A stretch of DNA of 64,000 bases, taken from positions 64,001-128,000 of the IMG/VR virus record IMGVR_UViG_3300045256_000135, one strand, 5' to 3'. A model generated the notes under the pieces. It did no database searches and had not been told where the DNA came from. It worked only from the letters and a program-made list of their open reading frames with translations. The position numbers were made by a program, and so were the translations under genes. This DNA is from a virus. Numbering within the stretch: the first letter of the stretch is position 1; each line of letters begins with the position of its first letter. Shown here piece by piece: positions 5,346-57,011 of this stretch.

Positions 5346-5346
5346 C

Positions 5347-11320: not shown

Positions 11321-11322
11321 GA

Positions 11323-27973: not shown

Positions 27974-29163
27974 GTGTTGTAGTACGCAATAACGCACAGT
28001 TCATTCGGCGTGGTGCTGTTGGCCGTGTAACCGTACAGTTGGTTGATTGCGACGGAAACGCGATCAATGCTAGTTCTGTGAAGCTGAATGTTATTCGTGG
28101 TGACTGTGTAATCTACAGCGAGGACCTCAATCAGGTGTATGTGGCACCTAGGGTCCACCGCATCTTCAAAATCTCTGGAAGCGTAGGGCAGTACGCTATT
28201 GATTGGGGAGATCAAGAGTTTCCAGCGACTATCACTGGTAGTGCTGGAGTGTACCCAACTGGCTTTGTCGGTGGGGAGACACTACGTCTTCAACTGGATG
28301 ATCAGATTCAAACGATTGCTTTTCAAAACACCGATCAGACGTTGGACCAGTGCATTAATCGAGTGAATGCTACATATGGCCCGATTTTTGGTCAGTTGGT
28401 AGCTTTCAACGACAGTGGACAGATCCAGTTTAGATCAAAGCGGCTTGGGCGAATTGGATCTACTGGTGTTGTCAATCCTGGTACGTCCCCATCTGTTTCA
28501 ACAGCTTTTGGTATCCCTGTAAACACATCCGTCACTGGTACATACAGAGAGCAAGAGACATCCTGTACTGACACCCTGTTGTTTGAGTGGATTGCTACTG
28601 ATGCTCTGCATCCTTCTGAAGAAATTCGAGTGATGCAAGTTGTATATGTACTTCCGCCAGTGATCTTTCAGATCCTTCCACAATTTCGGCTAATGCTGGA
28701 CAAGAGCTTAAAGCTAGTTGACCCAGCAGCTGGAAACATGCTCGGGTACACCGATAGCATGCTCCTGCAATACCTGATTGGTGGGATTCAAACGATCAAC
28801 CAAGCACAGCCAAGTATCTTTTTCTCGTTGGACAACTACCCGTACCGAGACTTTGGGAGTTTACTGATGGAGGCTTCCCTATATTGGGGCCTTTTGTCAC
28901 AAGTGCTGTATGCTGTTGATACAGACGTGCCCAATTACTCGGACCAAGGTGCGAGCTTCGTTATCAACCACTTCCAATCGCTCAAGGGCGTGCTTGATTC
29001 AATGAGCCAAGCACTTGAGCGAAAGATCCCGTTGATGAAGCTCCACTTCGTTAATACTGGATCAGTGCTAACTCAGATGGGTCCGTCCTTCAGACTTGAA
29101 GCTCTCTTGGTTGCTGCACCTAACGGAAGTTTGTTCAGGAACACATTCATGGGTGGCAACTGA
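27970..29163 (+). CDS. Putative head-tail adaptor (neck) protein
   Basis: C-terminal YTDSMLLQYL...IN...NYSDQGASF helical adaptor-like region; position after head genes. Confidence 0.55.
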   Translation: MSVVVRNNAQFIRRGAVGRVTVQLVDCDGNAINASSVKLNVIRGDCVIYSEDLNQVYVAPRVHRIFKISGSVGQYAIDWGDQEFPATITGSAGVYPTGFVGGETLRLQLDDQIQTIAFQNTDQTLDQCINRVNATYGPIFGQLVAFNDSGQIQFRSKRLGRIGSTGVVNPGTSPSVSTAFGIPVNTSVTGTYREQETSCTDTLLFEWIATDALHPSEEIRVMQVVYVLPPVIFQILPQFRLMLDKSLKLVDPAAGNMLGYTDSMLLQYLIGGIQTINQAQPSIFFSLDNYPYRDFGSLLMEASLYWGLLSQVLYAVDTDVPNYSDQGASFVINHFQSLKGVLDSMSQALERKIPLMKLHFVNTGSVLTQMGPSFRLEALLVAAPNGSLFRNTFMGGN

Positions 29164-30896
29164 TGACTGCAAGAGAAGAAAACAGTGTTGAGAAGTGGGA
29201 CGCAATCTGGGTGAGTGAAGGCTCTGAGACATGGAGAGCTACAGCACTAGATGCAGTGTATCAGAGAATTGTTCAGCTGATCCCTCGTGGCTCCAAGGTG
29301 ATAGATCTTGGTGGTGGCGTTGGTGTTCTTGGAAAGCTACTTCAAGAAGCCGGACACGACGTTGAGATTTGGGAGCAGTCAGGAGCAGCAATAGCAGCTG
29401 CTAAACAGGCTGGATTGAATGCTCAGCAAGTTGATTTTGTGACGGACCTACCCACCTTCCCAGAGGGATCAGTTATAGTAGCTACTGAGGTGTTGGAACA
29501 TTTTGACCGAGAGCTTAGATTCAAGATTCTAAACCAAGCTAGAGGTCATCTGTGCCTCTTTTCAGTGCCTAACGATCGGTTAGGACCAGAAGAGGAACCA
29601 CAGCATGCTGTGAAGTACACTGCTTTGAAGTTCCTACAAGATTTGCGAGAGCAGTGCAGTAAAGATGCACGTGTTGAGGTACTTGGTCCACCGAAAGATC
29701 GAAGACGCGTACCAGCGTTCTTACTTGGGGTGTGTGGTCAGCCAAAAGCTCACACACTCTCTATGACGATGCCAGTTCGAGATGAGGCTGAGGACATCGA
29801 AGAAGTCTTAGCCTCTTTTCGTGGCGTATCCGACGAGATCGTCATTGGGGTAGACCCGCGAACCAAAGATGACACGTTTGCAATTTGTGAGAAGTATTGC
29901 GAGAAGGTCTTTTACCTAACCGAGCTACTTGGTCCACCTGACGAGCAAGTACCTGAAGGTGGCTTCCATTTCTCTCATGCTCGCAATCAGTGCATCAATC
30001 GTTGTTCGAGCGAGTGGATCTTTATGACTGAAGGTCATGAACGGCTTGGTTCTGGACAGGATGCACTATTGAACCTCGGAAAGCTCTGCCCACCTGAGGC
30101 AATGGTTGGTTTTGTTTTGCGGACGGGGCAGGGTCAGCAGTGGGGGTTCCCGTGGCTGTTTAGGAACAAGCCTACGATTAGATTTCGAAGAGCGACACAT
30201 AATGACCTCGACTTTCCGCAAAGCTACCTCGTTGTACGATTGCCACAGGTTAAGACTATTCACCAGCGAGTCCACGAACGAGACATTGCTAGACAAAAGC
30301 AGAGAAAGGTTCAGAACAGAGTCACACTTATGCAGGACTGGATGGCAAACCAGTCGGAAATGTCGCTCTATTACTTGGGTTCTGAGTGGAGAGAATACGA
30401 CGACGAGCGAGCGATGTCGTATCTCAAACAGTTCATTACGATCAATAGATCGAATGGCCCAATGCGGTACAATACTCGTCTAATCCTTTGCAAGATGCTT
30501 GGTAATCTAGGTAGACTAGATGAAGCACGAGAAATACTCATACCAGCGGTTGGTGATGATTGGAGTAGGACTGAGCACTGGATCTGGCTCGGTGACATTA
30601 TGCACGTGCAAGAGCGGTACGAAGAAGCTCTGCAGTACTACCAGTATGGTGCTACGCGGATTGGTGATCCACCCTTCACTCTCTGGTGGATAGACCTATC
30701 ATTCTATTCGTACATTCCCGCACAAAGGCTTGCGATGTGCTATAGTGCTCTAGGCCGTTTGGAGGATGCACTTCAGTGGGCTAAAGCATCGAAGGACTTA
30801 CTACCACCCGATGTTCCAGAAGAGCTCGTTCAAGAGCACATTAAAAACATAGAGACAATTGAGGAGGCTTTAGCCAATGCATCTGCAAGACAATGA
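29163..30896 (+). CDS. SAM-dependent methyltransferase + GT2-like glycosyltransferase + TPR protein
   Basis: IDLGGGVG and ATEVLEH (class I MTase); SMTMPVRDEAEDI...DEIVIGVD...DDT...FSHARN (GT2); C-terminal TPR-like helices. Confidence 0.8.
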   Translation: MTAREENSVEKWDAIWVSEGSETWRATALDAVYQRIVQLIPRGSKVIDLGGGVGVLGKLLQEAGHDVEIWEQSGAAIAAAKQAGLNAQQVDFVTDLPTFPEGSVIVATEVLEHFDRELRFKILNQARGHLCLFSVPNDRLGPEEEPQHAVKYTALKFLQDLREQCSKDARVEVLGPPKDRRRVPAFLLGVCGQPKAHTLSMTMPVRDEAEDIEEVLASFRGVSDEIVIGVDPRTKDDTFAICEKYCEKVFYLTELLGPPDEQVPEGGFHFSHARNQCINRCSSEWIFMTEGHERLGSGQDALLNLGKLCPPEAMVGFVLRTGQGQQWGFPWLFRNKPTIRFRRATHNDLDFPQSYLVVRLPQVKTIHQRVHERDIARQKQRKVQNRVTLMQDWMANQSEMSLYYLGSEWREYDDERAMSYLKQFITINRSNGPMRYNTRLILCKMLGNLGRLDEAREILIPAVGDDWSRTEHWIWLGDIMHVQERYEEALQYYQYGATRIGDPPFTLWWIDLSFYSYIPAQRLAMCYSALGRLEDALQWAKASKDLLPPDVPEELVQEHIKNIETIEEALANASARQ

Positions 30897-42851: not shown

Positions 42852-43313
42852 ATGCCCGTTAATCCGCCGAACACACAAGTCCGTACCTCCCATGCGATTA
42901 CACTCAGAGCCAACGGTATCACAGTTGGCATCATCCAGAGCTGGTCGCCGAACCAATCGAGAACGATTACACCGATCTACGAGATCAATCAGGCAACGTC
43001 TGGTGAGCCGATTGAGAACGTTCCGGGTAACGTGGGTGGTCTGACCATCGGTGTTTCTCGATACGATTTGTACACCAAGCGGATGGAGCAGGCGTTTGGC
43101 ACTCCAGATTCCGCAATGCTTGGTGATCACAACAACCCGTTCACCGTGCTGGAAGTTTGGAGATTCCCAAACAATACGGTGGAATCGTTGCTTTACACAG
43201 GCTGCTGGTTCTCGTCAATCGGCAGACAGTACAGCGCAACTGATGCACGCGTTGTCCTTGCCAATGCACAGCTCTCGTACGTCCGCAAGATGTTCGTCCA
43301 GAAGGGTGCGTGA
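42852..43313 (+). CDS. Tail tube protein
   Basis: 153 aa after sheath; VGIIQS...IYEI...E.VPG...YTGCWF. Confidence 0.8.
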   Translation: MPVNPPNTQVRTSHAITLRANGITVGIIQSWSPNQSRTITPIYEINQATSGEPIENVPGNVGGLTIGVSRYDLYTKRMEQAFGTPDSAMLGDHNNPFTVLEVWRFPNNTVESLLYTGCWFSSIGRQYSATDARVVLANAQLSYVRKMFVQKGA

Positions 43314-43783
43314 TGAAGAAGTTGCTCTTTAGTTTCACTCTGATCTGTATGCTGGTCGTTCCAGAGGGGTGCTCTGATTGGGTTTCGAACTTCAAGAAGG
43401 ATCCAGTTGCTCAGACGCAATCCATTCTGACAACCGTACAGACTGTAGTAGACATCGCTACGATGATCTTCAAGCAGGCCTTGACGGCTCTTCCAAAGGA
43501 CAAGGTTGACGAACTTCAGAAGAAGTTTGACGATATTGTTCTTGTTATCAACAACTCGAAGACCCTGCTGATGGATGGTCTCGAAGTTGCTAAGACCGCA
43601 GGGACAAACCCAACCCTCGGAACGATTGTTGATCAGCTAACCAAGGGCGTTGTTGATCTTCAGGCCTTGGTCAACTCGATCAAGGCGACTACGGGGTCGA
43701 AATTCGGAGCTGGATCTGGACATGAAGACGATCTAGACAAGGCCGTTCACACATACCAGAAGTTCGCTGTTGAACTGAAGTGA
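43310..43783 (+). CDS. Putative lipoprotein
   Basis: MMKK + hydrophobic stretch + EGC lipobox-like site; helical remainder. Confidence 0.55.
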   Translation: MMKKLLFSFTLICMLVVPEGCSDWVSNFKKDPVAQTQSILTTVQTVVDIATMIFKQALTALPKDKVDELQKKFDDIVLVINNSKTLLMDGLEVAKTAGTNPTLGTIVDQLTKGVVDLQALVNSIKATTGSKFGAGSGHEDDLDKAVHTYQKFAVELK

Positions 43784-43821: not shown

Positions 43822-43946
43822 TCACGTTTAAACAGTCTCTAGTTGAAGCAGACTCCATACTGATATACATGCTAAGGGCGTTACAGAACTCCGTGTAGAG
43901 ACAAGTCTGGAAACGCTACGTAGGTAAATAGCTCTCCGGAGAGGAC

Positions 43947-44552
43947 ATGGAAAAGGAAATCAAGGACGCGAAGGTTAGTGAAGCTCTAAGCTTGATGGAC
44001 GACTTAGAGCAAGAGCTAGATTCAGGCTTTCTCGAAGAGATCGTGCAGGTCCGAGGGAGACTGTGGAAACTTCGTCTGTTGTGTGACCATGAGCAGGCTT
44101 GGGCGATGGGCTATGTGAAGGGTACAACGTTCTCAGCGATTGTACTCTCTCAGAAGACTCCCACACTTGCTATCGCGATCAGAGAGATTGGCAAGTTGAA
44201 CGCTGACGGGTCAAAGTCAATGTTCAGCATCCAAGACTTCTTTGTGAAGGAGTGGGAAGAGGTGACTAAGGGCAGTGCTGCTGAGATTCAGCGCGTGCTG
44301 AACTCCACCAACCCATATGCAGCGCAGTATTGGTTAGCGGAACGAATGTTTGAGTGGCTGTCAAAGCGCCCGCACGAGTTCACCACCGAGTTGTGGACGA
44401 AGTATCAAGAGCTCATGACTCGTCGGGAGAAAGCGGAAACAGCCATGGGAAAATCCTCAGAGGAGGGTGGGAACTCGTCCCAGACGAAGACGACGAGCTC
44501 GTCTCCCTCCTCAGAGACCACCCAGAGCTCCACTGGCGCTGGCAACAGCTAA
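43947..44552 (+). CDS. Tail assembly chaperone (G-like)
   Basis: Between tube and tape measure; contains G GGA AAA slippery site; GAGAGG RBS. Confidence 0.75.
   Translation: MEKEIKDAKVSEALSLMDDLEQELDSGFLEEIVQVRGRLWKLRLLCDHEQAWAMGYVKGTTFSAIVLSQKTPTLAIAIREIGKLNADGSKSMFSIQDFFVKEWEEVTKGSAAEIQRVLNSTNPYAAQYWLAERMFEWLSKRPHEFTTELWTKYQELMTRREKAETAMGKSSEEGGNSSQTKTTSSSPSSETTQSSTGAGNS
44447..44512 (+). promoter_or_regulatory. -1 frameshift signal of the tail chaperone
   Basis: GGGAAAA 44447-44453 then branched stem GAGGAGGG/CCCTCCTC. Confidence 0.85.
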
Positions 44553-45100
44553 AGATCAAGGCACGCGTCTGTTCTGACAAGCACATCCTACTCTCGGATC
44601 CGAGAGTACGGGAGATGTCACGTACACGATGGCTATTCGAAGCTTGGCAGCTTCGAATGAAGGATGCGAAACACCAGAAAGAGGTCAATACCATCGGGAA
44701 ACAGGGACTTGAGGCGATTCGTGATATACTAATCTCATTACTCGGTTTGAATCTTGCGCCAATTCCCGATGGCACTGATGAGAAAGGTGAGCCAAAGTAC
44801 CGATGGCCTGGCGAGGGTGAATATACACCCATGTTGTTTGCTATCGCAAGGCCAGACTATGCTTCAACTGTGTCAGAAGCAGTCAAAACACTCATCCCGC
44901 AAGAGTTTGACGATCAGCCAGTTCAAGATTTCTCCGAGGACGATCTGGAGTTCTTTGACGAGCTTCAAGCTGACCCAAAGACAGCTTTTTGGAATTCAGA
45001 CGAGATGATCCAGCAACGGAAGGCGTACATCAAAGAGGATGCCTCGATTCCAGCAACCAAGCCTACGCGTGTGAAGATAGAGATAGACGATGACACTTGA
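44453..45100 (+). CDS. Tail assembly chaperone T portion (expressed as GT fusion, ~384 aa)
   Basis: -1 frame of the 43947 ORF; track ORF 44354..45100 lacks a convincing independent start. Confidence 0.75.
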   Translation: MLRGGWELVPDEDDELVSLLRDHPELHWRWQQLKIKARVCSDKHILLSDPRVREMSRTRWLFEAWQLRMKDAKHQKEVNTIGKQGLEAIRDILISLLGLNLAPIPDGTDEKGEPKYRWPGEGEYTPMLFAIARPDYASTVSEAVKTLIPQEFDDQPVQDFSEDDLEFFDELQADPKTAFWNSDEMIQQRKAYIKEDASIPATKPTRVKIEIDDDT

Positions 45101-47477
45101 CGCAGAGATTGAGCTAGAGGGCTTTGCTGCGGGTACAGATGCAGCAACTGAACTCGGTAAAGCTGTCACCGAGTATGACGCGCTCGTTGCAAAACTCAAT
45201 GCTCAATTCACTGACTTCGAGAAACTGTTTGACAGACTGAACCAAACAGTTGACAAAGAAACTGCTAAGGTCGGCAAGAACAGCGAAGCTGAGAAGGGTA
45301 AGAAGCAGGAGCTTGATCGTAAGAAACAGCAAGAGCAACAAGAGGCTGAAGAGAAACGACTAAAAGCTCAGATGTCCAAGATGCTTGGGGGCGGCGTGAA
45401 CATGATCGCCTATCAAGCTCAACTGGATAAGCTGAAGGATCAGATGTCTGCTATTGAGCAGGCTGAGAAAAAGGGGTTGGTTACATCTGGTGAGGCAAGT
45501 GACGCGCTAAGCAAGTTGTCAAAGCAATACTCGAAGCTTGAGACTGAGGCTACAGCCTATGCTATTGTTGGTGGTGGCAACATCGGCAAGATGGCGGCTA
45601 AAGCAACTGCCACGCTTCAGTCTCTTCCGGGAGCAGCTCAAGGAGCGGTCAAGAATCAGATTTCAGGCATTGGTACTGGCTTGATGGGGTTGATGAGCGG
45701 ACTTCCAATCGCTGGTGGTCTGTTTGGGCTGATGCTTTACGGTGTTACCAATCGAGATCGGTTAAACGCCGACGCAGGAGAGCTTAGCAACATCTTCCTA
45801 GCTACTGGAAAACGAGCTACTAGTGAAGCGATGGGGTACTTTAGCAGTTTTCAAGAGCAGGCTCAGAAGTACTTGGGGATGTCGAAAGCGGACGTACAAA
45901 CGGTGCTAAACACCTTTGTCAGTGCTGGGATCTCTATTGACCAGATTATGACGAAGCAGCAAGGCAACCTAGGGATGGTCACGCATGACATTGCAACCCT
46001 TTCCCTAGCCATTGATAAGCACTTCGAGATGGCTTCTGGAACATCAGCACGCAATATTGTCACTTTGATCAATGACTTTGGCATGGAGGTAGCCAAAGCT
46101 GGATCAATGTACGAGAAACTTGCGTTTGCTGGCATTCAATCTGGAGTCGGGGTTCAGAATTTCGTCGGTCAGGTGATGCAGTCAGCAACTGCACTCAAGC
46201 AGTACGGTGTGTCAGTTGAAAGTGTAGCTGCATTGTTCTTGAAAGTGCAAGAACATTACGAGAGCCTTGGTATGCCTAAGCAGCTAGCCGGAAACCAGGC
46301 GAGCATCGCGATGGGCCAAATTACATCGGGTCTAGCAAACCTCTCGAACGGTGAACAGTCGTACTTAGGCGAGCGAATGGGGCTAGGTTCTGGGCTTGAG
46401 GCTAGAATGCGGTTCCGTGAAGGTATGACACGATTGACGGGTGGGGAGGGTGGCTCCCCCGACTTCTTGGAGAATCTGCTCCGTGAAAAATACAAGGCAA
46501 CGCTCGAAGCGACTGGTGGGGACAAGACACAAGCTCGATATATCCTCGAACAGACTGGAATGGGCTACGAAGGAGCTAAGCTACTGTCTGAAATTGGCGA
46601 TGATCTTGGCAAAGGTTTGAAGCTATCAGCTTTGACCAAAGAGCAGCGTGATGCTCTAAAAGACTCGTTCATGACTGAAGGGCAGAAGCAATCAGAGCTT
46701 CAAAAAGATCAAAATCGAATCATGGCTGACATGGCGAAGATGGGTGAGGGCACTCTGCAGGTGCTAACCAATCTTGCAGGATGGTTGATCATCTATTTCA
46801 AAGAGTTCCCTGTCTTGTTGATGGGTACCAGTCAAGAGAAGTCTGAGATCAAAGCTGTTGTAGCTGAGTTTCAGCAAGGCATGAAGACCGGGTTGGGCAC
46901 TGTTTGGGATGGTTTGAAATCACTTGGAGCTGACATGGAAGCAGCTTTGAAGCCGATCATCAAACCAATCTTTGATGCATTAGAGTTCGACCCAAATAAG
47001 GCAGCTGGTGTACCAACAATGGCTACCACCATGGGTGACAAAGCTGCGAATGCTGATGCAACCACTAAAGCAGTTGCAGCTCCCTTCATGGCATGGCATA
47101 CAGCCCTAGACTCTGGTGGCGCAGCACTGCAAAAGCATGCTACAGGAATTGCAAATGTGTTGAACCGGAGTGGCTTGATCAAAGACGATCCAGCCCACAA
47201 AGGGTCTACGACTCAGGTTGTGAAGAAACTCGGTGAGTGGTCACAGTTGGGTGGGCAGATCGATTATGATATCGCTGCTGGTTTGGGTTCGCAACAGGCT
47301 AGAGCGTCTCAGTGGGCAAAAGACACCACTGGTTCTGGTGTCTTCAGTGGTGATACCACTGCTACCGCCAGAAAGAAGGAAGAGGACGACTGGGCCAAAC
47401 GAACCACCACCGTGACGGTTGACGTGTACCCCACCTCAAAGCAGGATCAACGACCTACAACGAACACGGGGCAGTAA
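45090..47477 (+). CDS. Tape-measure-like protein A
   Basis: Directly after G/GT chaperone; A/G/Q/M-rich helical; paralogous to 48252 and 50410. Confidence 0.75.
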   Translation: MTLDAEIELEGFAAGTDAATELGKAVTEYDALVAKLNAQFTDFEKLFDRLNQTVDKETAKVGKNSEAEKGKKQELDRKKQQEQQEAEEKRLKAQMSKMLGGGVNMIAYQAQLDKLKDQMSAIEQAEKKGLVTSGEASDALSKLSKQYSKLETEATAYAIVGGGNIGKMAAKATATLQSLPGAAQGAVKNQISGIGTGLMGLMSGLPIAGGLFGLMLYGVTNRDRLNADAGELSNIFLATGKRATSEAMGYFSSFQEQAQKYLGMSKADVQTVLNTFVSAGISIDQIMTKQQGNLGMVTHDIATLSLAIDKHFEMASGTSARNIVTLINDFGMEVAKAGSMYEKLAFAGIQSGVGVQNFVGQVMQSATALKQYGVSVESVAALFLKVQEHYESLGMPKQLAGNQASIAMGQITSGLANLSNGEQSYLGERMGLGSGLEARMRFREGMTRLTGGEGGSPDFLENLLREKYKATLEATGGDKTQARYILEQTGMGYEGAKLLSEIGDDLGKGLKLSALTKEQRDALKDSFMTEGQKQSELQKDQNRIMADMAKMGEGTLQVLTNLAGWLIIYFKEFPVLLMGTSQEKSEIKAVVAEFQQGMKTGLGTVWDGLKSLGADMEAALKPIIKPIFDALEFDPNKAAGVPTMATTMGDKAANADATTKAVAAPFMAWHTALDSGGAALQKHATGIANVLNRSGLIKDDPAHKGSTTQVVKKLGEWSQLGGQIDYDIAAGLGSQQARASQWAKDTTGSGVFSGDTTATARKKEEDDWAKRTTTVTVDVYPTSKQDQRPTTNTGQ

Positions 47478-48259
47478 TGGCGCTCGCAGATTTGGCTTCA
47501 GCACTGACTCAGTCACTTTTTAACAAAGGTGATGGTCTTCAACCGGTTCGAGTCCCAATGGTGTTCTCTTGCACTAGTTGGAGAGCACGGAACATACCAC
47601 CGCTTGCGTTTAGAGTCAACCCTCACCAAGTGGTATTCAAACAAGCGAAGCGTATCTCGAAGAAGAACACTCGAGGTGGGACCGTTTACTGGCACTGGGC
47701 CGACGATCAGGGATCCGACAACGACATCCTGGAGATGCAGTTTCGTGGTAGAACTGGTTCGATTCTGAACAAACCAAACGATGCTAGTGCAGCACCAGGT
47801 GGACCAGCATCAGCCAACTCTCCACTTGTCGGACTAACCAATCCAATCAGTCAAGACAACCCCACTCCAACTGCTGGTGCAACAAAACACTATCAGTGGG
47901 CTCGATTGTATCAGTTGACTAGCCTCCCGACTCTGGACAAAGAGCTGAACCAACTCAACCTGTCTACCGTAATCTACAGAAGCCCACTCTTTCCCAACCC
48001 TGTTCAGTTTACGGGGTTCTTCAACCAAGTCTTGGACTTTGACGAAGTTGCCGAACGTCCGTTTATGACTGAGTATTCGTTCACGTTTGTGGTTCAGAAG
48101 ACACAACCAAACCTAAACACGCTGACTGAGTACCTAGCGCAGGCTCTGCTGATCAACCCACAACAGTCTGCTGCAATCAACAATGCAGTAGCAACAGCTA
48201 ATGCACAACAACAAGCGAACACTGGAGCTGTAACAGGGTCAAACACGAGAAATGGCTGA
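47477..48259 (+). CDS. Putative tail tube initiator / baseplate hub-proximal protein
   Basis: F.VNP...K...TRGG...HW...F.G.TG...GFF..F.E....PF..Y.F.F. Confidence 0.6.
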   Translation: MALADLASALTQSLFNKGDGLQPVRVPMVFSCTSWRARNIPPLAFRVNPHQVVFKQAKRISKKNTRGGTVYWHWADDQGSDNDILEMQFRGRTGSILNKPNDASAAPGGPASANSPLVGLTNPISQDNPTPTAGATKHYQWARLYQLTSLPTLDKELNQLNLSTVIYRSPLFPNPVQFTGFFNQVLDFDEVAERPFMTEYSFTFVVQKTQPNLNTLTEYLAQALLINPQQSAAINNAVATANAQQQANTGAVTGSNTRNG

Positions 48260-50417
48260 CATCAAGCTTGAAGGTGCGGTCGACCGATTTAAGAAGCTCG
48301 GAAATGAGCTAGAAAAGCTAATCTCGAGCAAAATCTCGGTAAACGACTCCCTCGCTTCTGTAATTGCTAAGTACAATCAGCCGTCTCCAGCAGAGGTAGA
48401 AGTCCTGCGAACTGAGTTGGTCACAAAGCAAAGAGAGCTGAAAGAGTATGCTCCCTTGTTTGGTGATCGCAGTACTTTGAAGCAAGCGCTCGAATTGAAT
48501 CAGATTCACCAGAAGGTGGTGGATGTTCAAAAAGCAATGCGTATGGGCATTGTGGACATCGAAGCGGGTGAGGAGCAGCTAGCAAAGCTCAGACATGAGA
48601 TGAGTCTTGCTGAGCTAAAAGCACACTCTTTTAGCATGTCTGGCTTGACAGATGAACAGGGTGGTAAAAGTAGCGGTGGGCTTGGATCAAAGCTAGAGGC
48701 TGGAGCAACTGAAGGCATAAACGCAGCAATCACAAAAGTATGCTCAACAATCAGTGGCGAGGCTGCCGGAATTGCGGAAGGTTTACTCGGTTTGTCATCA
48801 GCTCTTCCGGTGGCCGGTGGTCTGTTTGGCTTACTGATGTACGGTGTTAAGGAGCACGATAGACTTCAGCAACAGTCTGGTGCTTTGCTGAACGTCGTGA
48901 GTGCTTACGGAGCAGAAAGCTATCGGAAGTCGATAGCTTGGCTTGACGGTTTTCAAGAGCGAGCCCAGAAATTCTACGGTATTAGTCGAGGAGCAGTTCT
49001 AAGCATCGTTTCGCAATACGTAAACGCAGGCGTAAGCTTGTCTGATTTTCTTTCGGTTTATGATGCTAGCTTAGGCGAAGTGGGGACTAATGCCGTCACA
49101 GCAACCCTAGCTCTGGATAGGACCTTCGAATTGGCAAATGGGTTCACTGCTCGCGGAGCCATTGCACAGATGCGTGCTCATGGCTACTCGATGCATGATG
49201 CCGTGTCTAGAATGGCCTTGATGGAGTCTGCCGTAGCAAAAGCAGGGCTTGGAGTTGAGCGAACTATCACTTGGGCTCTCCAAGCTGCTCAAAACGTGCG
49301 TAGGTTTGGTATAGACGCACAGCAACTAGTAGAAGCATCAATCGCGTTCAGCAGATCACGGAGAAACAAAGGCCTCGGCCAGCAAACTGGTGTTGCACAG
49401 GGTCTGTCCGAATTCACACAGGGACTCTCTTCGTTGTCGACCGCTCGTGAGCTGTGGATGGCGGAACAACTTGGGTACGGTAAGGGTCTACTTGGTCGAT
49501 GGGCTATGCGTGACATGTTGAAGAACGTTGATTCAACTCGTCTCTTGCAGATTGCTAAGATGTTCAGAGATGAAGCTGTCAGGTCTGGTGGAGATGAGAC
49601 TAATGCTCGATTCTTCCTTGAGCGGCAGGGTTTCGGGTTTGAAGGAGCTAGAGCTATCTACGAGCTGGGGGATTTGACTAACAAGGACTTGAAGTTGTCT
49701 GAGCTTGATGCGCAAGCTCTTGGAAACCTCCGCTCTGCATTTGTTGACGAGGGCAGTAAGGTTTCTGAAAATCAACGAAAACTGAACGCGATTTTGGCGA
49801 GTATGCGAACTGTTGCTCAAACCTCTATGAGCATCCTCAGTGACGCGGTTGCGTTTGTGATTGTTGGTGTAGAGTCGCTTCCGTATATCATGTTGGGTAC
49901 CGGTGCTCAGAGAAGGGCAGCATATGCTGAGCTAGAGAGGATCACAGGTGATCTGACCGGAAACGCAGCACTGTTTTGGTCTGGCTTGAAAAGCACCGGC
50001 GAAGGGATAGGCCAGATTCTTGAGCCACACATTCGACCAATTGTCAAAGCATTGGTGTTTGATCCAAAAGTCTCACTAGCACAAAGGGACGCTGCCATAC
50101 AAGCTGCTTCAGATACTGAGAAGCACACTAATCGAGTTGCCGCTTGGCAGAATCCAGTACTCAGACCGGTTGGTGATGCAATGCTATTTGGAGCAAAGAC
50201 AGTTAACCAGGGTCTAAAGGCAACAGGGGCTGATACAACTGACACGGACAAGTGGGGAATTGTCTCTGATCAGAGGATTCAAAAGACCGAACAAACGAGA
50301 GATGAGGCCGATAGCAATGGACCACATTCGATGGCACCAGTTATCAAGCGGCGGATGCACCCTGGAGCTGATTCAGCTGATTCAGTACGTGTTCAAGTGA
50401 CGGTTGCTTATGGCTGA
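48252..50417 (+). CDS. Tape-measure-like protein B
   Basis: LPVAGGLFGLLMYGV, FQERAQKFYGIS and GFGFEGA motifs shared with A and C. Confidence 0.7.
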   Translation: MADIKLEGAVDRFKKLGNELEKLISSKISVNDSLASVIAKYNQPSPAEVEVLRTELVTKQRELKEYAPLFGDRSTLKQALELNQIHQKVVDVQKAMRMGIVDIEAGEEQLAKLRHEMSLAELKAHSFSMSGLTDEQGGKSSGGLGSKLEAGATEGINAAITKVCSTISGEAAGIAEGLLGLSSALPVAGGLFGLLMYGVKEHDRLQQQSGALLNVVSAYGAESYRKSIAWLDGFQERAQKFYGISRGAVLSIVSQYVNAGVSLSDFLSVYDASLGEVGTNAVTATLALDRTFELANGFTARGAIAQMRAHGYSMHDAVSRMALMESAVAKAGLGVERTITWALQAAQNVRRFGIDAQQLVEASIAFSRSRRNKGLGQQTGVAQGLSEFTQGLSSLSTARELWMAEQLGYGKGLLGRWAMRDMLKNVDSTRLLQIAKMFRDEAVRSGGDETNARFFLERQGFGFEGARAIYELGDLTNKDLKLSELDAQALGNLRSAFVDEGSKVSENQRKLNAILASMRTVAQTSMSILSDAVAFVIVGVESLPYIMLGTGAQRRAAYAELERITGDLTGNAALFWSGLKSTGEGIGQILEPHIRPIVKALVFDPKVSLAQRDAAIQAASDTEKHTNRVAAWQNPVLRPVGDAMLFGAKTVNQGLKATGADTTDTDKWGIVSDQRIQKTEQTRDEADSNGPHSMAPVIKRRMHPGADSADSVRVQVTVAYG

Positions 50418-53019
50418 TTTGCATTCATTGACTGCAGCCCTGCAAGGATTCGGGGCTGGAATGGTCAAGCTGAATGGTTTGCTTGGAAAGTTCTCAGAGA
50501 CTCGAGAGAAGTGGCTAGAGAAACCTGTTGAACTTCCAGCACCTCCACAGCCAAAGCACCCTCTCGGTGATGAGCATCAAGAGCTTCTTGACATCAAGCT
50601 CGACGCTGGGAAGATTGGTGGACTACTCGAAGAGAGTTACTTCGAGCAGATGGCTACTATTCAGGTTCAGATCAGTGAGGTGAATGCTGCTGTTCGTTTG
50701 GGTGTGGTTGATAAGAAGCATGCGTCAGAGCTGCTAGCAGAGCTGGAAGAGAAGTATGCTACTCTTGGTCGTGAAGCAAAAGCGCACGACTTTGGTGGTG
50801 CTGGCGCAGTGGAGCTTCTTCGGCAGGTGTCAGACGCTCCAAACAAAGCCATGCAGTTCGTGAAGGATCAGTTTGCTGGAATCGCAACTGGCACTTTGGG
50901 GCTTGCAGCAGGTTTACCAATAGCTGGTGGTCTGTTTGGTTTGCTGATGTACGGTGTCACTGAAAAAGATCGTATGGCGGTGCAAGCTGGTGAACTGACG
51001 AACATTATGTCTGCGTCTGGTAGATCGGTATCGTCTAGTTTTCTGCAATTTTACGCCAGTTTCCAAGAGAATGCTCAGCAATTCATGGGCATGAGCAGAA
51101 GCGATGTTCAGTCGATTATCTCGACTCTTGTGCAATCAGGGGCAGTGCTAGATGGGTTAAGCACTAACTGGCACTCAGAGCTGGGGGTTGTTGGGCATGA
51201 CGTGATTACGATGTCTCTAGCGTTTGATAAGCTCTTTGAGGAGGCCACGGGGACAACGATCAGTGAGGCTATAGAAACCTCTCGAAACTACGGGGTAAGT
51301 CTAGAATCAGCCACGCTATCTATGATCAAGATCGGGTTCTCTGCAAGTAAGGCTGGAACATCGATCTCTGGCTTCATGAAATACGTGACGGATCTAGAGC
51401 CACAGCTTCGCTATTACAGAGCTGACGCTGAATCGATTGCAGCACTCACTATCTCTCTTCAGGAGGAGTACGAAAACGCGGGGATGGTAGCCTCTGTTGC
51501 AATGGCGACCGCAAAGCAAGGTATGCAACAGATTAGTCAGGGGTTGTCCAATCTTAGCATTGGTGTGAAGGCTCACGTTGGCGAGCAGTTAGGGCTGGGT
51601 GATGGCGTTGATGCCGCCTACGCTCTGACTGATTCGATTAAGAACGCTGATTCGCAGATGTTCTTCAGCACGTTGAAGCAGATCGCCTCACTCGCCGAAA
51701 AAGAGACAAAAGGTACTGGTACTGAGCTCCTGAGTCCAGACGATAAGATCCGCTATTACCTAGAGAACCAGCTTGGGATGGGTTTCGAGGGTGCTTTGGC
51801 TCTATCCAAGATTCTGAAAATGCAAAGCTCTCAAGCAAAGCTTGGAGAAGTTGAAGCGTCGGATTGGGCGTTGTTACGAGACTCGTTCAAGACTGAAGCA
51901 GAGAAGCAGTCCGAGCTAGAGAAGGACAAGAACGAGATTCTGAAGGGGATGGCGAACGTTGGGCAGGGCATGCTTGGCACGCTTCTCTCGTTTTCTGGAT
52001 TTGCGATTATTGCGATCAAGGGCCTGTTCTCGATGCAGTATGGTGATTGGAATGCCATGTTAGCCAATTTTGGAGGGCAAGCGTTGTCGGCTGGGCTAGG
52101 CGCTATTGACGTTGATATCACATCAATCAACTTCGTTCCGAGATCTGCTCAAAATCTGGCAGTTTACCAAAAAGAGCAGGAATTCTTCAATCAGATGGGT
52201 GACCAGTTCCACCAGGTGGTTACAGGTACCAGCATGATTGGAAATGGCATCGGAAAGATTGCGTATCCACTCATTGTACCGTTATTAAAAGCACTAGGTT
52301 ACAAGTCTGGCTGGACTTCAATTGTTGGACAAGCTGCGGGACAGACAATTGCAAACTTTGACGCCGCAGTAGCTAAGGCAGCTCCAGGTGTTTACAAAAC
52401 CCTTGCTGATGCTCCAAAGAAGTTGGTTCAAGCTGATGGCAAATACACTGCCTACGCACCAGCTGGTTCAACACTGGTTGAGACCAAAAAGATGCCTGTA
52501 ACCTACGAGCAAGTCAGGGCTGCGGTTGCTGAGGCGTTCAAGCAAGTGACTGGTGCTATGCCGTCAGAAGAGCTAGCTGACACATTAGCCGCGCAGGCGT
52601 GGTTTGAATCGGGTCAAACAGGTGGGCTCTACAACTACAACTTCGGCGGTGTGAAAGGAAAAGGCACAACGGGGCAAACTGCTCTGTTTGCAACCCATGA
52701 AGTGATCAACGGTGAGACCTTAGCTGTGAAGGACTTCTTTCGAGCATACGAAACCCTGCTCGATGGTGCCATTGACTACGTCAAGATCCTCAAAGGTCGC
52801 TATCAGTCTGCGATTGACGCTGCTCAGCATGGGGATGTTGAAGGGTACGTACACAAGCTGAAGGAACGTGGTTACTTCACTGGTGATGAAGCGAAGTACA
52901 AGCAGTTCATTTCGTCGATCATCAAAGCACACCAGAAACCCAAAGTTAACGTCACAGCAACGATGAACAAGACGCCAGACGGCAACGAAGTAAGAGTCGT
53001 TACGCAGATCTCTCATTAG
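50410..53019 (+). CDS. Tape-measure-like protein C with C-terminal GH73/FlgJ-like glucosaminidase
   Basis: Shared motifs with A/B; AQAWFESG...YNFGGVKG...FRAY.T..DG..DY...GYFT. Confidence 0.75.
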   Translation: MADLHSLTAALQGFGAGMVKLNGLLGKFSETREKWLEKPVELPAPPQPKHPLGDEHQELLDIKLDAGKIGGLLEESYFEQMATIQVQISEVNAAVRLGVVDKKHASELLAELEEKYATLGREAKAHDFGGAGAVELLRQVSDAPNKAMQFVKDQFAGIATGTLGLAAGLPIAGGLFGLLMYGVTEKDRMAVQAGELTNIMSASGRSVSSSFLQFYASFQENAQQFMGMSRSDVQSIISTLVQSGAVLDGLSTNWHSELGVVGHDVITMSLAFDKLFEEATGTTISEAIETSRNYGVSLESATLSMIKIGFSASKAGTSISGFMKYVTDLEPQLRYYRADAESIAALTISLQEEYENAGMVASVAMATAKQGMQQISQGLSNLSIGVKAHVGEQLGLGDGVDAAYALTDSIKNADSQMFFSTLKQIASLAEKETKGTGTELLSPDDKIRYYLENQLGMGFEGALALSKILKMQSSQAKLGEVEASDWALLRDSFKTEAEKQSELEKDKNEILKGMANVGQGMLGTLLSFSGFAIIAIKGLFSMQYGDWNAMLANFGGQALSAGLGAIDVDITSINFVPRSAQNLAVYQKEQEFFNQMGDQFHQVVTGTSMIGNGIGKIAYPLIVPLLKALGYKSGWTSIVGQAAGQTIANFDAAVAKAAPGVYKTLADAPKKLVQADGKYTAYAPAGSTLVETKKMPVTYEQVRAAVAEAFKQVTGAMPSEELADTLAAQAWFESGQTGGLYNYNFGGVKGKGTTGQTALFATHEVINGETLAVKDFFRAYETLLDGAIDYVKILKGRYQSAIDAAQHGDVEGYVHKLKERGYFTGDEAKYKQFISSIIKAHQKPKVNVTATMNKTPDGNEVRVVTQISH

Positions 53020-53040
53020 TCTTTAAGAGTGGTTAAACCC

Positions 53041-53091
53041 ACAGCTTACTATATAGCTACGTCAACCTGGAACAGTGTGTAAGACAGGTAT
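53041..53091. promoter_or_regulatory. Degenerate copy 3 of the composite element
   Basis: ACAGCTT-N6-TAGCTAC, then AGACAGGTAT 21 nt downstream. Confidence 0.45.
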
Positions 53092-53100
53092 GGAGAGAAC

Positions 53101-55581
53101 ATGTCTAGGGCTACTGGTGTAGAACAGGGCAAGGTACGGAACTTCTTCCCTGCCTACCGAGTGTTCATTGCTGGGGTCGAAGTAACAAGACTTTGCTCGT
53201 CAGTGCGGAACAGCTGGTCAGACCACAACCCAGCACAGGTGGTTGTCGAGCTTGTTAACCCAAACCAGTTGATGACTCTGACAGCGTACGACATGCTGCT
53301 GATTGCTGCGTACAAGCAACAAGCAGTGTCCCAGGCTCTCGCCGAACTGTCAGCAGAATTTAACTCGAGATTGTTGCGGCTTGGGTCAGAGAACGTATTC
53401 CAGAGAGCGCTGGGGGAGCTACAGGATCAGTTTCCCATTGATCCCCAGGACGTCTTGAACTACTATGCTGACATTGCGCGTCAAGATTTGATTTTTCCTC
53501 AGGTGGGGAATTTGCCACCTCCACTCGATATCTTCGCCGATCTGAAAAACACGATTCTAGCGAAGAAGCTTGAGTTGGTGTATCAGCAGGGCACAATTGG
53601 CATTGATGGTCAGCCCTTACCGAACGAAGCTTTCTTCAAGTACCCAATGGTTCAAGGGCAGTGGATCTGGCATACTGAGGATCCAGTAGTCGTTGCAGTT
53701 CGAGATGTCGCGGACCCGAGCAGGTGGTATTGGTTTGGTCGTGGAACAATCACGGACATCTCTGAAGACGAAGACGAGAACATGCAGTCGAAGCTCAACA
53801 TTACTGTTGAGGGTGTTCTCAAACCGTTCAGAAATTCCCGTGTAGCAAACTTCACTGGCGCAATTTTGTCACCACGAGAATTCAAAACTGCAGCTGGGGA
53901 CGTAACTACGATCAGTCCAGAGGATTACTCTCAGATCCAGAATGCAAGCTATACCAACTTTCTGCAAAACCTCACGATTCAACAGATCGTGGAGATCATG
54001 GTGTTTGGATCTCAGTCGGTGCTTGACGACTTGGGTCAGGCAGTGCGAGCTGTGCAGCAGGGTGATGAGCCAGAAGCTCTGCTGCAAGAACGCTTCGGTA
54101 TACCTGTAAACTCTGAGGGAGCTATCTCTGATCAGGCGATCTCTGCGTTTCAGCAACAACTGCGGAATCTGAATATCTCTGGATTAGGTGGATTCAAACG
54201 TTTTTCTCGGGTTTCTGGTGTGGACGTACGAATTCTGGGTGGCGGAAACGCAGACAATGCTTCGGACGTTGTTCTTGGTACTCAGACACCGTCTCTCAGT
54301 GAGTGGCACAAGCTGCTAGATAATGAGATCACTACTGCAGACTTCTACAACATGTACATTCCAGACGCTGTTCAGACCGGCGTTACGTCGAACACGTCTG
54401 GCAGGCCTGTGCCACCCCTACAGTGGTTGGCACAAGGTACAGTTCGAGGCAACCAGCTGAATTTGAACACACAAGTTGACCAAGGAACACTGCTAGAGCA
54501 GGTGATCACCGCAATCGGAACGCACCCAGAAAACTACCCAATTCGTCAACGTGTCCTAATGCTGCTCCCGGCAAACTTGGGCGCCAGATTGGGGCGGAAG
54601 GTGCTAGACCTAGAGATAGCAAACTCAGCTGGCTCTGTAGCAGAATTCTACGACAGATTATCCTTGCTTCAGCAGATTCTCAGCAGAATGGAGTTCTCGT
54701 TTTACGACACACCTCGAGGTGACGTAGTGATTGAGATGCCATTGTACGACTTTGAACCTAGACACTTTGCTAACACCAACGAGCTTTCTGATCAGTACAC
54801 TGAGGGTCCAACTGGAACAGGAAACGTCACCCAAACGTTTACCAATGTTGAGGAGCAACTTACAGCTGACGCTGCATTCCAAGAGCTTACGGCCATTGAG
54901 AAAGCGAATCTTGAGTCAGTTGTGCCAACCACGACTGCGTATGATCGAACCTTTCGGATCTTTCCGTTCGAACAGATCCGGATCAATATCACTCGCAGTG
55001 ATCAAGACGCAAAGACTGTTTGGGTGGCAACACCTAGATGGACCGAGGCAATTGCTAGAGATGGTTCACAAGCATCTCGACAAAGGGTTGCAGTTGCTCT
55101 GCCGAATTTGATCCCGTTGTACGGTATCCGCGTAGAGCAAGGAGACCCACCAGGCAATATTCGAACGGATGAAGCTGCACGACTCTACTGCTACCTGCAA
55201 CTGATGAAGTGCAATGCGGATATTGTCAGTCTTCGTGTGCCATGTTTGCCAAATTGGGGAGCATGGCTAAACCGCCCGGTGCAAGTCGACTCTCGCAACA
55301 TCATTGGATCGACCAAGTCAATCACGCACTCCATTGTCTGGCAGTCGGATTGTTCGACGGAGTATGGGTTCTGGCACTGCAAGTTTTGGGATGGACGATT
55401 TGTACCAACAGCTACAGGTCCTAGAAAGCTGTATTCTACGTTTGGTGGGGTGAACTCCCAACCCTTCAACTACTCGTATCTCCTGCAAATCGACAAGATC
55501 TCAGCAGCACTTGGAGCTCAACCTGGCCAAGCTGATGCAAATCTCAGTGCAGTCTTTGACACGATTAGGAATGGACGATGA
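53101..55581 (+). CDS. Putative baseplate hub protein
   Basis: RVFIAGVEV start; EFSFYDTPRGDVVIEMPLYDF; YGIR; position before spike. Confidence 0.6.
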   Translation: MSRATGVEQGKVRNFFPAYRVFIAGVEVTRLCSSVRNSWSDHNPAQVVVELVNPNQLMTLTAYDMLLIAAYKQQAVSQALAELSAEFNSRLLRLGSENVFQRALGELQDQFPIDPQDVLNYYADIARQDLIFPQVGNLPPPLDIFADLKNTILAKKLELVYQQGTIGIDGQPLPNEAFFKYPMVQGQWIWHTEDPVVVAVRDVADPSRWYWFGRGTITDISEDEDENMQSKLNITVEGVLKPFRNSRVANFTGAILSPREFKTAAGDVTTISPEDYSQIQNASYTNFLQNLTIQQIVEIMVFGSQSVLDDLGQAVRAVQQGDEPEALLQERFGIPVNSEGAISDQAISAFQQQLRNLNISGLGGFKRFSRVSGVDVRILGGGNADNASDVVLGTQTPSLSEWHKLLDNEITTADFYNMYIPDAVQTGVTSNTSGRPVPPLQWLAQGTVRGNQLNLNTQVDQGTLLEQVITAIGTHPENYPIRQRVLMLLPANLGARLGRKVLDLEIANSAGSVAEFYDRLSLLQQILSRMEFSFYDTPRGDVVIEMPLYDFEPRHFANTNELSDQYTEGPTGTGNVTQTFTNVEEQLTADAAFQELTAIEKANLESVVPTTTAYDRTFRIFPFEQIRINITRSDQDAKTVWVATPRWTEAIARDGSQASRQRVAVALPNLIPLYGIRVEQGDPPGNIRTDEAARLYCYLQLMKCNADIVSLRVPCLPNWGAWLNRPVQVDSRNIIGSTKSITHSIVWQSDCSTEYGFWHCKFWDGRFVPTATGPRKLYSTFGGVNSQPFNYSYLLQIDKISAALGAQPGQADANLSAVFDTIRNGR

Positions 55582-57011
55582 GACCTAGAACACCGCAAGA
55601 CAAAAACCCAACTACTGCTGCAAGAAACGCGGATCAATTCTACTCTCGGGTCCAAAGAGCGGTTATCACAACCATCGATACGCAGCGAGGAGTTTGCTCG
55701 CTCGAATTCGAGAACACACCTGGAGAGCGGTCCGGTGTAACAGTTCCCATCGGTTGGCTCTCCTTGCCTCGCTCGAGAGCAAGGGCTGCTTGGAGCCGAT
55801 ACATGCCCCAACTCGGGGATGTGGTGCTGGTTGGCTTTGATTCAAACTCAGACGCCAGAATCCTTGGTTATGATGCGATTTCGTATGAGCTTTTGACCAA
55901 GCTACAGGAAGAGGAGAACATTACGTTCTTCGACCTTCAACCGGGTGAGTTTGACAGCAAAAGCTCAGGGAACGCGTATATCAAGGGTGATCGACTTGGG
56001 GTGCTTTTACTTGCTGGTGGTCTTCAGAGCATTGTACTGGACAAGCAGAGACGAGAGTTGGTCGTAAAAGCATCGACCCACAAAGAGGTTCTAGATGCGT
56101 CGATTTCTCGACTTGGTGTGGCAAAACGAACCTCCACCACGAATAGCTCTGACGTAGTAGCTAAGCGTGGGTTTGGGGTTCCTGCTGAACCTAATGGTGC
56201 AACAGCTTCAGCACCTAATCTATACGAGAAGACAGTAGATCTTCGCCAGGTAACCACTGGAGTCCCGTTTGGTACTCCGATGGCCTTTGAGTCTTTGGGC
56301 GATGTACTAGATCCCGATGTGGATGAGATTGAGCAAGGTAACTGGGGAGCTGCTGGCCCAGCTGGAGTCAAGCAGATGAGGGCCACCGGGCAGTTCGTCA
56401 GAGCACTACTTCGAGTATACGACTCAACCCCTAATGGCACAGCTCTGGGGACTCCAGGCCCCGTTGGCGGGTCTGCAAAGCGTCCATTCGAATATGCTAT
56501 TGACGTACTTGGTAATGTTGTCGTGAACCAAGGTCAGCTTGCGTCAGCGGGTGTATTCGCTTACCTACCTATAAGTGTAGAGCTTCAAACTCTGCTGTTC
56601 ACACTTCACACTGCTACCGCAAAACTTGGGGACAAAAACACCGCTACCGAGCCAGTTGTATGTGGCAACTTGTTCTTAGACGCTACGTCTACGTTCATGA
56701 CAGCACATGCTACATACATAGCTGCAGTTGAAGCGTGGTCAGCAGCAGTAACCGCATACAACGTTGCGGTTGGAGGTGCATTTGCAACAGCTGGTTCAGG
56801 AAGCGGCTTGATTACTCCAGCTATTGCTGCTACAATGGCTGCTGCCGCTACTGCGTATGGGTTAGCTGAAGTCAACTTCGCAGCTGCTACTACAACTTTC
56901 AATGCAGCTATTTCAGCGTATGTTACTGCAGTGACGAATGCTCTGTCTAAGGCAGTTTTTGTCTCGTTGAATCCAGGTGTTCTGCAACCTACGAGTGAGA
57001 AACAGATATGA
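55578..57011 (+). CDS. Putative baseplate spike (gpV/gp5-like OB fold)
   Basis: ITTID..RG...MPQLGDVVLVGF...LQPGE; EPVVCG followed by Ala-rich helix. Confidence 0.65.
   Translation: MRPRTPQDKNPTTAARNADQFYSRVQRAVITTIDTQRGVCSLEFENTPGERSGVTVPIGWLSLPRSRARAAWSRYMPQLGDVVLVGFDSNSDARILGYDAISYELLTKLQEEENITFFDLQPGEFDSKSSGNAYIKGDRLGVLLLAGGLQSIVLDKQRRELVVKASTHKEVLDASISRLGVAKRTSTTNSSDVVAKRGFGVPAEPNGATASAPNLYEKTVDLRQVTTGVPFGTPMAFESLGDVLDPDVDEIEQGNWGAAGPAGVKQMRATGQFVRALLRVYDSTPNGTALGTPGPVGGSAKRPFEYAIDVLGNVVVNQGQLASAGVFAYLPISVELQTLLFTLHTATAKLGDKNTATEPVVCGNLFLDATSTFMTAHATYIAAVEAWSAAVTAYNVAVGGAFATAGSGSGLITPAIAATMAAAATAYGLAEVNFAAATTTFNAAISAYVTAVTNALSKAVFVSLNPGVLQPTSEKQI

Follow-up and report, generated by a model that had tools for sequence, protein, structure and literature searches.

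Solved phage tails have a channel filled by a trimer of one tape measure protein (TMP), with its C termini in the baseplate core; on expulsion, it has been proposed, this protein builds a membrane channel (PMC11445458). A myophage TMP has been seen as a six-fold helical bundle in which three distal helices were modelled (PMC10966104). TMPs fused to muralytic domains include P1 Sit, T5 pb2 and TM4 Tmp, and a figure of 1.5 Å per residue is given for TMPs (PMC9024508). Here we analyse three paralogous TMP genes, A, B and C, in the tail module of a large uncultured contractile-tailed phage. They lie in a stretch of 64,000 nucleotides, called the window below, which comprises bases 64001–128000 of a virus record of 183,244 bp (IMGVR_UViG_3300045256_000135). 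A first-pass annotation of the window had set them against the premise that a phage normally has one TMP forming a homo-oligomer, with which PMC11445458 agrees.

Three paralogous genes and their place among tape measures

The open reading frames (ORFs) starting at 45090, 48252 and 50410 had been described as full-length paralogs with collinear motifs, intact and coupled to their neighbours, one of them bearing a GH73 domain, and each of these observations held. BLASTP aligned A with B at 29% identity over 540 amino acids (aa; E 3e-76), A with C at 36% over 513 aa (E 2e-85) and B with C at 31% over 570 aa (E 2e-67), and the motifs occupy invariant columns of a three-way alignment. All three frames are open and intact on the + strand, and a tblastn search of the whole 183,244-bp genome recovered exactly these three copies. 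From a chaperone pair (G and GT) through C the genes overlap by 1–11 nt: 11 nt for GT/A, 1 nt for A and the gene X that separates it from B, 8 nt for X/B and 8 nt for B/C. The last figure is counted from the ATG of C at 50410 (869 aa); a TTG at 50404 (871 aa) is an equally possible start. An assembly artefact is ruled out: copies that are about 30% identical cannot be an assembly duplication, and their order is kept in four genomes of the window lineage. Positions 43900–55600 were covered by one contig record in each of two runs with zero differences and hence no population variation; these records may be the source data. A protein identical to C (P0005) also sits on a contig that, at 366,137 bases, has about double the length of the 183,244-bp genome. 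This suggests that a circularly permuted or terminally redundant genome was assembled as a head-to-tail dimer.

Neither A, B nor C reached the cut-offs of the curated TMP families (PF10145 PhageMin_Tail, PF20155 TMP_3 and the NCBIfam/TIGRFAM models). Ten family members searched against NCBIfam matched no TMP model, and family profiles searched against PDB sequences returned coiled-coil noise only. The case that these proteins are TMPs therefore rests on context and fold. Regarding context, gpG/gpGT-type tail assembly chaperones, whose genes stand ahead of the gene for the tape measure, are typified by a −1 overlap with a slippery heptamer. The three genes begin directly 3′ of such an overlapping pair and lie 5′ of the baseplate hub genes, and in all 13 loci examined an in-register XXXYYYZ heptamer is found in the −1 overlap just 5′ of the first TMP copy. 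The two chaperone ORFs gave no sequence-family match; their arrangement fits the gpG/gpGT type, with the frameshift predicted from sequence. Regarding fold, all three are long helical proteins with two hydrophobic 19-residue segments each (Kyte–Doolittle means 1.3–1.8). For A, AlphaFold2 (AF2) with 55 family members as input gave an all-alpha model, and its block-mean predicted local distance difference test (pLDDT) score is mostly >90 for residues ~220–610, with a dip near 441–460. A Foldseek search of the PDB with this model returned nothing at E ≤ 1e-3. The same model had 99 matches in BFVD at E ≤ 1e-3 (best 9e-8), and among the best 50 of these all 25 named rows are tape measure or minor tail proteins. 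The predicted structure thus resembles annotated TMPs at low template modelling (TM) scores, which are expected for long flexible helical proteins.

We conclude with good confidence, from context and fold, that the three proteins are tape measures and belong to a family beyond current curated models. An exhaustive profile search found 392 representative proteins at E ≤ 1e-3, 209 of them at E ≤ 1e-30, and the best 150 of the 392 span 411–1024 residues, mostly ~700–1000. Current Pfam, PHROG and NCBIfam models thus miss a TMP family of 392 representative clusters, so that annotation pipelines leave the rulers of these phages unnamed.

Copy number, lysin placement and duplication in relatives

To place these genes among relatives, we scanned IMG/VR and JGI contigs with the family profile and examined 23 records including the window, 3 of them cut at a contig end. 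The 20 uncut loci all hold more than one copy: fifteen have three tandem copies, five have two and none has a single copy. After near-identical records were collapsed, these represent ~10 distinct three-copy phages and 3–4 distinct two-copy phages. Two complete genomes with terminal repeats contain exactly two copies in whole-record searches, and three copies are therefore not obligatory. The patterns used to search for loci came from three clades only, and viral-contig scans with P0038 and P0101 placed two further family clades in no contig. A tblastn search of 50,697 phage records with C and with P0063 gave no match to the core, only the lysin domain of C being matched, and no cultured relative was found among these records. 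No relative was found in a scan of genome contigs, and there is accordingly no prophage or host link. The family belongs to a clade of uncultured, contractile-tailed phages of 150–210 kb.

Gene order is conserved across these loci: a sheath-size gene, a tube-size gene, the chaperone pair, the TMP copies, a homolog of X, a gene of ~820 aa and the baseplate genes. The position of X differs between two lineages. Only the window lineage (the window, L001, L002 and L027/L028) has X between A and B. In the other lineage its homolog, a gene of ~255 aa (E 1e-26 to 1e-37), follows the last TMP copy.

Among A, B and C, a peptidoglycan hydrolase domain is found only in C. This predicted domain, PF01832, spans residues 725–844 and scores 40.7 bits against a cut-off of 30.2. 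NCBIfam FlgJ-type models matched C at E 8.4e-8 to 4.4e-6, all below their cut-offs, and PHROG endolysin families matched it at E 1.3e-6. The same placement recurs in relatives, with a wall-hydrolase Pfam domain in 7 of 13 last copies versus none of 23 other copies. The domain types counted in last copies are Hydrolase_2, Glucosaminidase, M23 and CHAP, and the type of enzyme varies widely across the 55 family members. C-terminal tails range from 109 to 374 residues across 41 copies and are longest in last copies. We also observed that in the window, L001 and L002 each of the nine copies ends in a short alternating hydrophobic run, which by its sequence looks like a beta-strand and might serve all of them for docking to the hub.

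The remainder of the protein varies little in length. We mapped the core, the stretch between two anchor motifs, on the same 41 copies, and found it to be 411–458 residues long in every one, preceded in every one by an N-terminal part of 171–222 residues. Because core length hardly varies, a test for covariation of core length between paralogs had no power. The only pair of loci close enough for the ratio of nonsynonymous to synonymous substitution rates (dN/dS) was L019/L025, at dS about 1.3. Its two copies gave dN/dS of 0.105 and 0.065, similar to the 0.04–0.07 of neighbouring structural genes, and purifying selection acts on both. For the three-copy pairs L008/L009 and L003/L009 the ratio was 0.12–0.31 at dS of 1.7–3.3, values on which we do not rely. 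Between window-lineage genomes dS is saturated, so that dN/dS is not computable there, yet all twelve genes are open. Ortholog identity among the window, L001, L002 and L028 is 43–48% for A versus 28–38% for B and C. A is thus the most conserved copy in these alignments, and rates after duplication were asymmetric.

We reconstructed the history of the copies with a quick IQ-TREE run on 38 copies from 14 loci, with branch support from the Shimodaira–Hasegawa-like approximate likelihood ratio test (SH-aLRT). Orthogroups A, B and C were recovered with support of 100, 99 and 99, and the three were united in one clade (SH-aLRT 98). The last copies of the other lineage formed a clade of their own (SH-aLRT 100). 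Its first and second copies, together with the first copies of two-copy genomes, formed another (SH-aLRT 100), inside which the first and second copies of three-copy genomes pair together (SH-aLRT 89). An approximately unbiased (AU) test rejected the grouping of C with the last copies of the other lineage (p 0.005). From the tree and the differing position of X we conclude that B and C were produced by duplications within the window lineage and that the other lineage gained its extra copy separately; A, between the chaperone and X, occupies the ancestral position. Together, tree, gene order and AU test point to at least two origins of the three-copy state. Gene conversion early on is a less probable account.

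A proposed ruler of unlike chains, or one ruler with passengers

The reading that we favour, tentatively and somewhat short of calling it probable, is a hetero-oligomeric tape measure made up of A, B and C, in which one chain bears the lysin. The three proteins would be made together from one translationally coupled operon of one contractile tail, and one frameshifting G/GT-type chaperone would handle all three chains. They would then lie side by side in the tube lumen as the ruler, with their C-terminal ends at the tube-initiator/hub end. Every copy keeps the N-terminal coiled-coil part, the core of ~430 residues and the two hydrophobic segments, a common architecture from which each chain would span the same length. 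With the hydrolase confined to the last copy, a tail would deliver its lysin on a single kind of chain and not on three identical ones. Once the tail contracts, the chains would be driven out; C would cleave the wall, and a membrane conduit would form with the help of the hydrophobic segments, as proposed for other TMPs. This arrangement is the most economical one given equal spans, the full architecture in every copy, a lysin on the last copy, and a single chaperone pair, a single initiator-like gene and a single hub-like gene. A stronger form, possible and held more loosely, is an obligately heteromeric tape measure: unlike chains would run parallel in the lumen, with the hydrolase on one kind, and this state would have evolved at least twice by independent tandem duplication. 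Such an obligate heteromer could comprise three kinds of chain, or two in a 2:1 or 3:3 arrangement. A heteromer with division of labour had been suggested at the outset. Two or three copies per uncut locus, the constant core, the last-copy lysin, independent duplication and, for one pair, purifying selection speak indirectly for that suggestion; the idea that three copies are obligatory does not stand.

Several observations weigh against a heteromer, or against its being a tape measure at all. Contact among A, B and C is something that we infer. A complex prediction for their C-terminal halves scored 0.01 against a mark of 0.32, in a run without controls that we count neither for nor against binding. 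Because complete genomes exist with two copies, a 1:1:1 trimer is not the general rule, and a trimer encoded by two genes would need a 2:1 composition. The two family clades placed in no contig mean that single-copy lineages may exist unseen. The group rejected by the AU test was named after the tree had been seen. The slower evolution of A would also fit one true ruler with faster-evolving accessory proteins. As to identity, no TMP model of Pfam, PHROG or NCBIfam matched A, B or C significantly. Relatives matched such models only weakly (TMP_3 in 1 of 55 and PhageMin_Tail in 1 of 55; 1 of 23 for each in a second set). An hhalign comparison of the family profile (A3) with the TP901-1 TMP gave a probability of 0.7%, so that A, B and C are not placed in the TP901 family. 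TM-scores of A against TMP models in Foldseek were low (0.17–0.31 by query), and helical proteins give 3Di matches of weak specificity.

The main rival, which we consider unlikely, is that A alone is the ruler. A homotrimer of A would measure the tail, and B and C would be TMP-derived ejection proteins held in or below the tube without setting its length, C serving after contraction as the wall cutter and B as the membrane conduit. The ancestral position of A, adjoining the chaperone and X, its higher ortholog identity, the restriction of the lysin to the last copy and a copy number of either 2 or 3 would all fit such a division. A passenger that is not a ruler, however, would have no need of the full architecture and of a core as long as that of A, both of which are kept across the 41 copies. 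Moreover, the other lineage has all of its copies between the chaperone and X, so that position singles out none of them.

That A, B and C are not tape measures, and form a separate helical virion or ejection family inside the tail module with the true ruler encoded elsewhere, we regard as improbable. The failed curated-model and hhalign comparisons point in this direction, as does an AF2 core that is compact and helical and not extended. Against it, no other long helical ORF lies between the chaperone and the hub-like gene in the window, a frameshifted chaperone directly precedes the first copy at every one of the 13 loci, and the named BFVD rows were without exception TMP or minor tail proteins. 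Even less probable is a serial ruler, in which the paralogs would be stacked end to end and tail length would reflect their summed lengths (~2,400 residues here). Intact, co-expressed copies would suit it, but equal core lengths would be needless and yet are seen. In addition, two- and three-copy relatives are near-identical in their sheath-like and tube-size genes and in synteny, with no sign of a one-third change in tail design, and we found no precedent in the literature searched. Very unlikely, finally, are the alternative tails also raised in the first-pass annotation, with one paralog per virion by host or condition, or extra copies that are neutral duplicates: the variable copy number would allow either and is nothing specific, and both are at odds with one coupled operon that has one chaperone pair, one X and one hub-like gene, with purifying selection on both copies of L019/L025, with copies intact across saturated divergence, and with enzymatic content that is complementary, not redundant.

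Should the favoured heteromer prove true, it would be the first ruler built from unlike chains, as against the trimer of one gene product in solved tails. If it were in addition obligate and had evolved at least twice, it would be no accident but a selected solution, for example to the problem of accommodating a bulky enzyme in a narrow threefold hub. The family also makes several questions testable: the number of TMP chains per contractile tail, how a threefold ruler meets a sixfold tube, how the hub takes up a fused enzyme, and how the roles of ruler and ejected conduit are divided among the parts of a TMP.

Tail-module neighbours and comparison with known systems

The features of the module are collected in Table 1. 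The sheath-like protein had no match in Pfam or PDB sequence searches; it takes its name from an Atlas structure match (row 6) with a TM-score of 0.90 by that row, which reaches our bar for naming. A gene of ~150 aa follows a gene of ~815 aa in 11 of 13 listed loci (it is not listed for L003 and L005). On position and size the 153-aa protein is a candidate tail tube protein; a PDB sequence search with it gave no match. The baseplate hub-like protein had no match in Pfam or PHROGs, and its Atlas clusters with the Phage_GPD and GpP-like/Gp44-like families (TM 0.74–0.84) all fall below the naming bar.

Table 1. Features of the tail module, in window coordinates
Feature	Position	Strand	Basis
Tail sheath-like protein, 814 aa	40342..42786	+	Atlas structure search, PF04984/PF17482 Phage_sheath clusters
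Tail tube candidate, 153 aa	42852..43313	+	phrog_985 'virion structural protein', E 3.9e-11
Predicted tail assembly chaperone, G-like zero-frame product, 201 aa	43947..44552	+	Directly 5′ of A, overlapped by −1 frame
Slippery heptamer GGGAAAA, X_XXY_YYZ register of G frame	44447..44453	+	Read from sequence
−1 frame extension, predicted GT-like chaperone part	44354..45100	+	Stop overlaps start of A
A, TMP paralog, 795 aa	45090..47477	+	BLASTP, alignment, AF2 model, Foldseek, anchor motifs
X, tube-fold protein resembling baseplate tube initiators, 260 aa	47477..48259	+	AF2 model and Foldseek PDB
B, TMP paralog without enzymatic domain, 721 aa	48252..50417	+	BLASTP, Pfam, anchor motifs
C, lysin-bearing TMP paralog, 869 aa (ATG)	50410..53019	+	BLASTP, Pfam, anchor motifs
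Predicted glucosaminidase domain (GH73, PF01832) of C, residues 725–844	52576..52935	+	Pfam E 4.3e-10
Baseplate hub-like protein, 826 aa	53101..55581	+	Atlas structure search; lead only
Baseplate J-like wedge protein, 477 aa	57986..59419	+	PF04865, E 1.4e-4, 21.7 bits vs cut-off 21.1

The gene between A and B had been called tube-initiator-like, and the predicted fold of X agrees with that description, in a model of modest confidence (mean pLDDT 61.7). X had no family match in Pfam or PHROGs. Its AF2 model is a beta-sandwich with helices, and its best Foldseek rows in the PDB are baseplate chains of 206–238 aa from contractile injection systems (CIS) and myophages (E 8.5e-4 to 7e-3, TM 0.30–0.39). 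The top chains come from the baseplates of PVC, AFP, the Anabaena contractile system, phiCD508 and phi812, and ordinary tube proteins match X less well (E about 1e-2). On this modelled fold the label is fair and not secure.

Other observations concern the surroundings of these genes. A small ORF at 43310–43783 (+), between the tube candidate and the chaperone, encodes an N-terminal hydrophobic stretch followed by a cysteine, which we take to resemble a lipoprotein signal peptide. C and the hub-like gene are separated by 81 nt, and within this gap lies a 34-nt element (53040–53073) with one further genomic occurrence, inverted and with 4 mismatches, at about 51697 of G000:C1 (− strand). Contigs from other runs also terminate on this element, a possible regulatory site. 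Four very large ORFs (657+, 1126, 1153 and 798 aa) in 1–13719 (+), without a Pfam match at E ≤ 1e-3, come before a Mu F-like head protein, a prohead protease and the major capsid protein. Among the very large ORFs just 5′ of the head genes is an 861-aa ORF (5281–7866, +) that fuses a ferritin/rubrerythrin-like domain (PF00210, E 1.1e-10) to an inorganic pyrophosphatase domain (PF18823 InPase, E 4.9e-26). In the structural module, a 577-aa ORF (29163–30896, +) matches a methyltransferase PHROG (E 3e-5) and a beta-1,4-glycosyltransferase PHROG (E 4.9e-12).

We know of no case of several paralogous tape measure genes in one phage. A literature search, which included the accessible parts of PMC3271669, PMC3447690 and PMC7302621 and had subscription journals mostly outside its coverage, returned no report of one. 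The tape measure itself is familiar; what is unfamiliar is a conserved, repeatedly evolved multi-paralog tape measure with a lysin on one chain.

Several known systems offer comparisons. X resembles the tube initiators of PVC, AFP, the Anabaena CIS, phiCD508 and phi812 in size, in adjoining TMP and hub-like genes, and in its predicted tube-type beta-sandwich plus helix. The match is weak (E about 1e-3), and in the window lineage X lies between TMP copies and not after them. As with the gpG/gpGT pair of Lambda, two overlapping ORFs stand directly 5′ of the TMP, the second in the −1 frame, with the heptamer at 13 of 13 loci. The pair differs from that of Lambda in matching no sequence family, in a frameshift that is predicted, and in that one pair would serve three TMP chains. 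A functional analogy is offered by the internal core proteins gp14, gp15 and gp16 of T7, three ejected proteins that build a trans-envelope conduit, one with a wall-cutting domain. The analogy goes no further than function: the T7 proteins are mutually unrelated, reside in the head of a short-tailed phage and have no measuring role.

A further comparison is with the lysin-bearing TMPs P1 Sit, T5 pb2 and TM4 Tmp. Like them, A, B and C are encoded between the tail chaperone and the baseplate and are long, mostly alpha-helical and equipped with hydrophobic segments, and C has its predicted wall hydrolase near the C terminus. Unlike them, the window paralogs match no curated TMP sequence model. 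Moreover, whereas the phages of Sit, pb2 and Tmp have one TMP gene each, every uncut relative examined here has two or three diverged paralogs, with the lysin on one.

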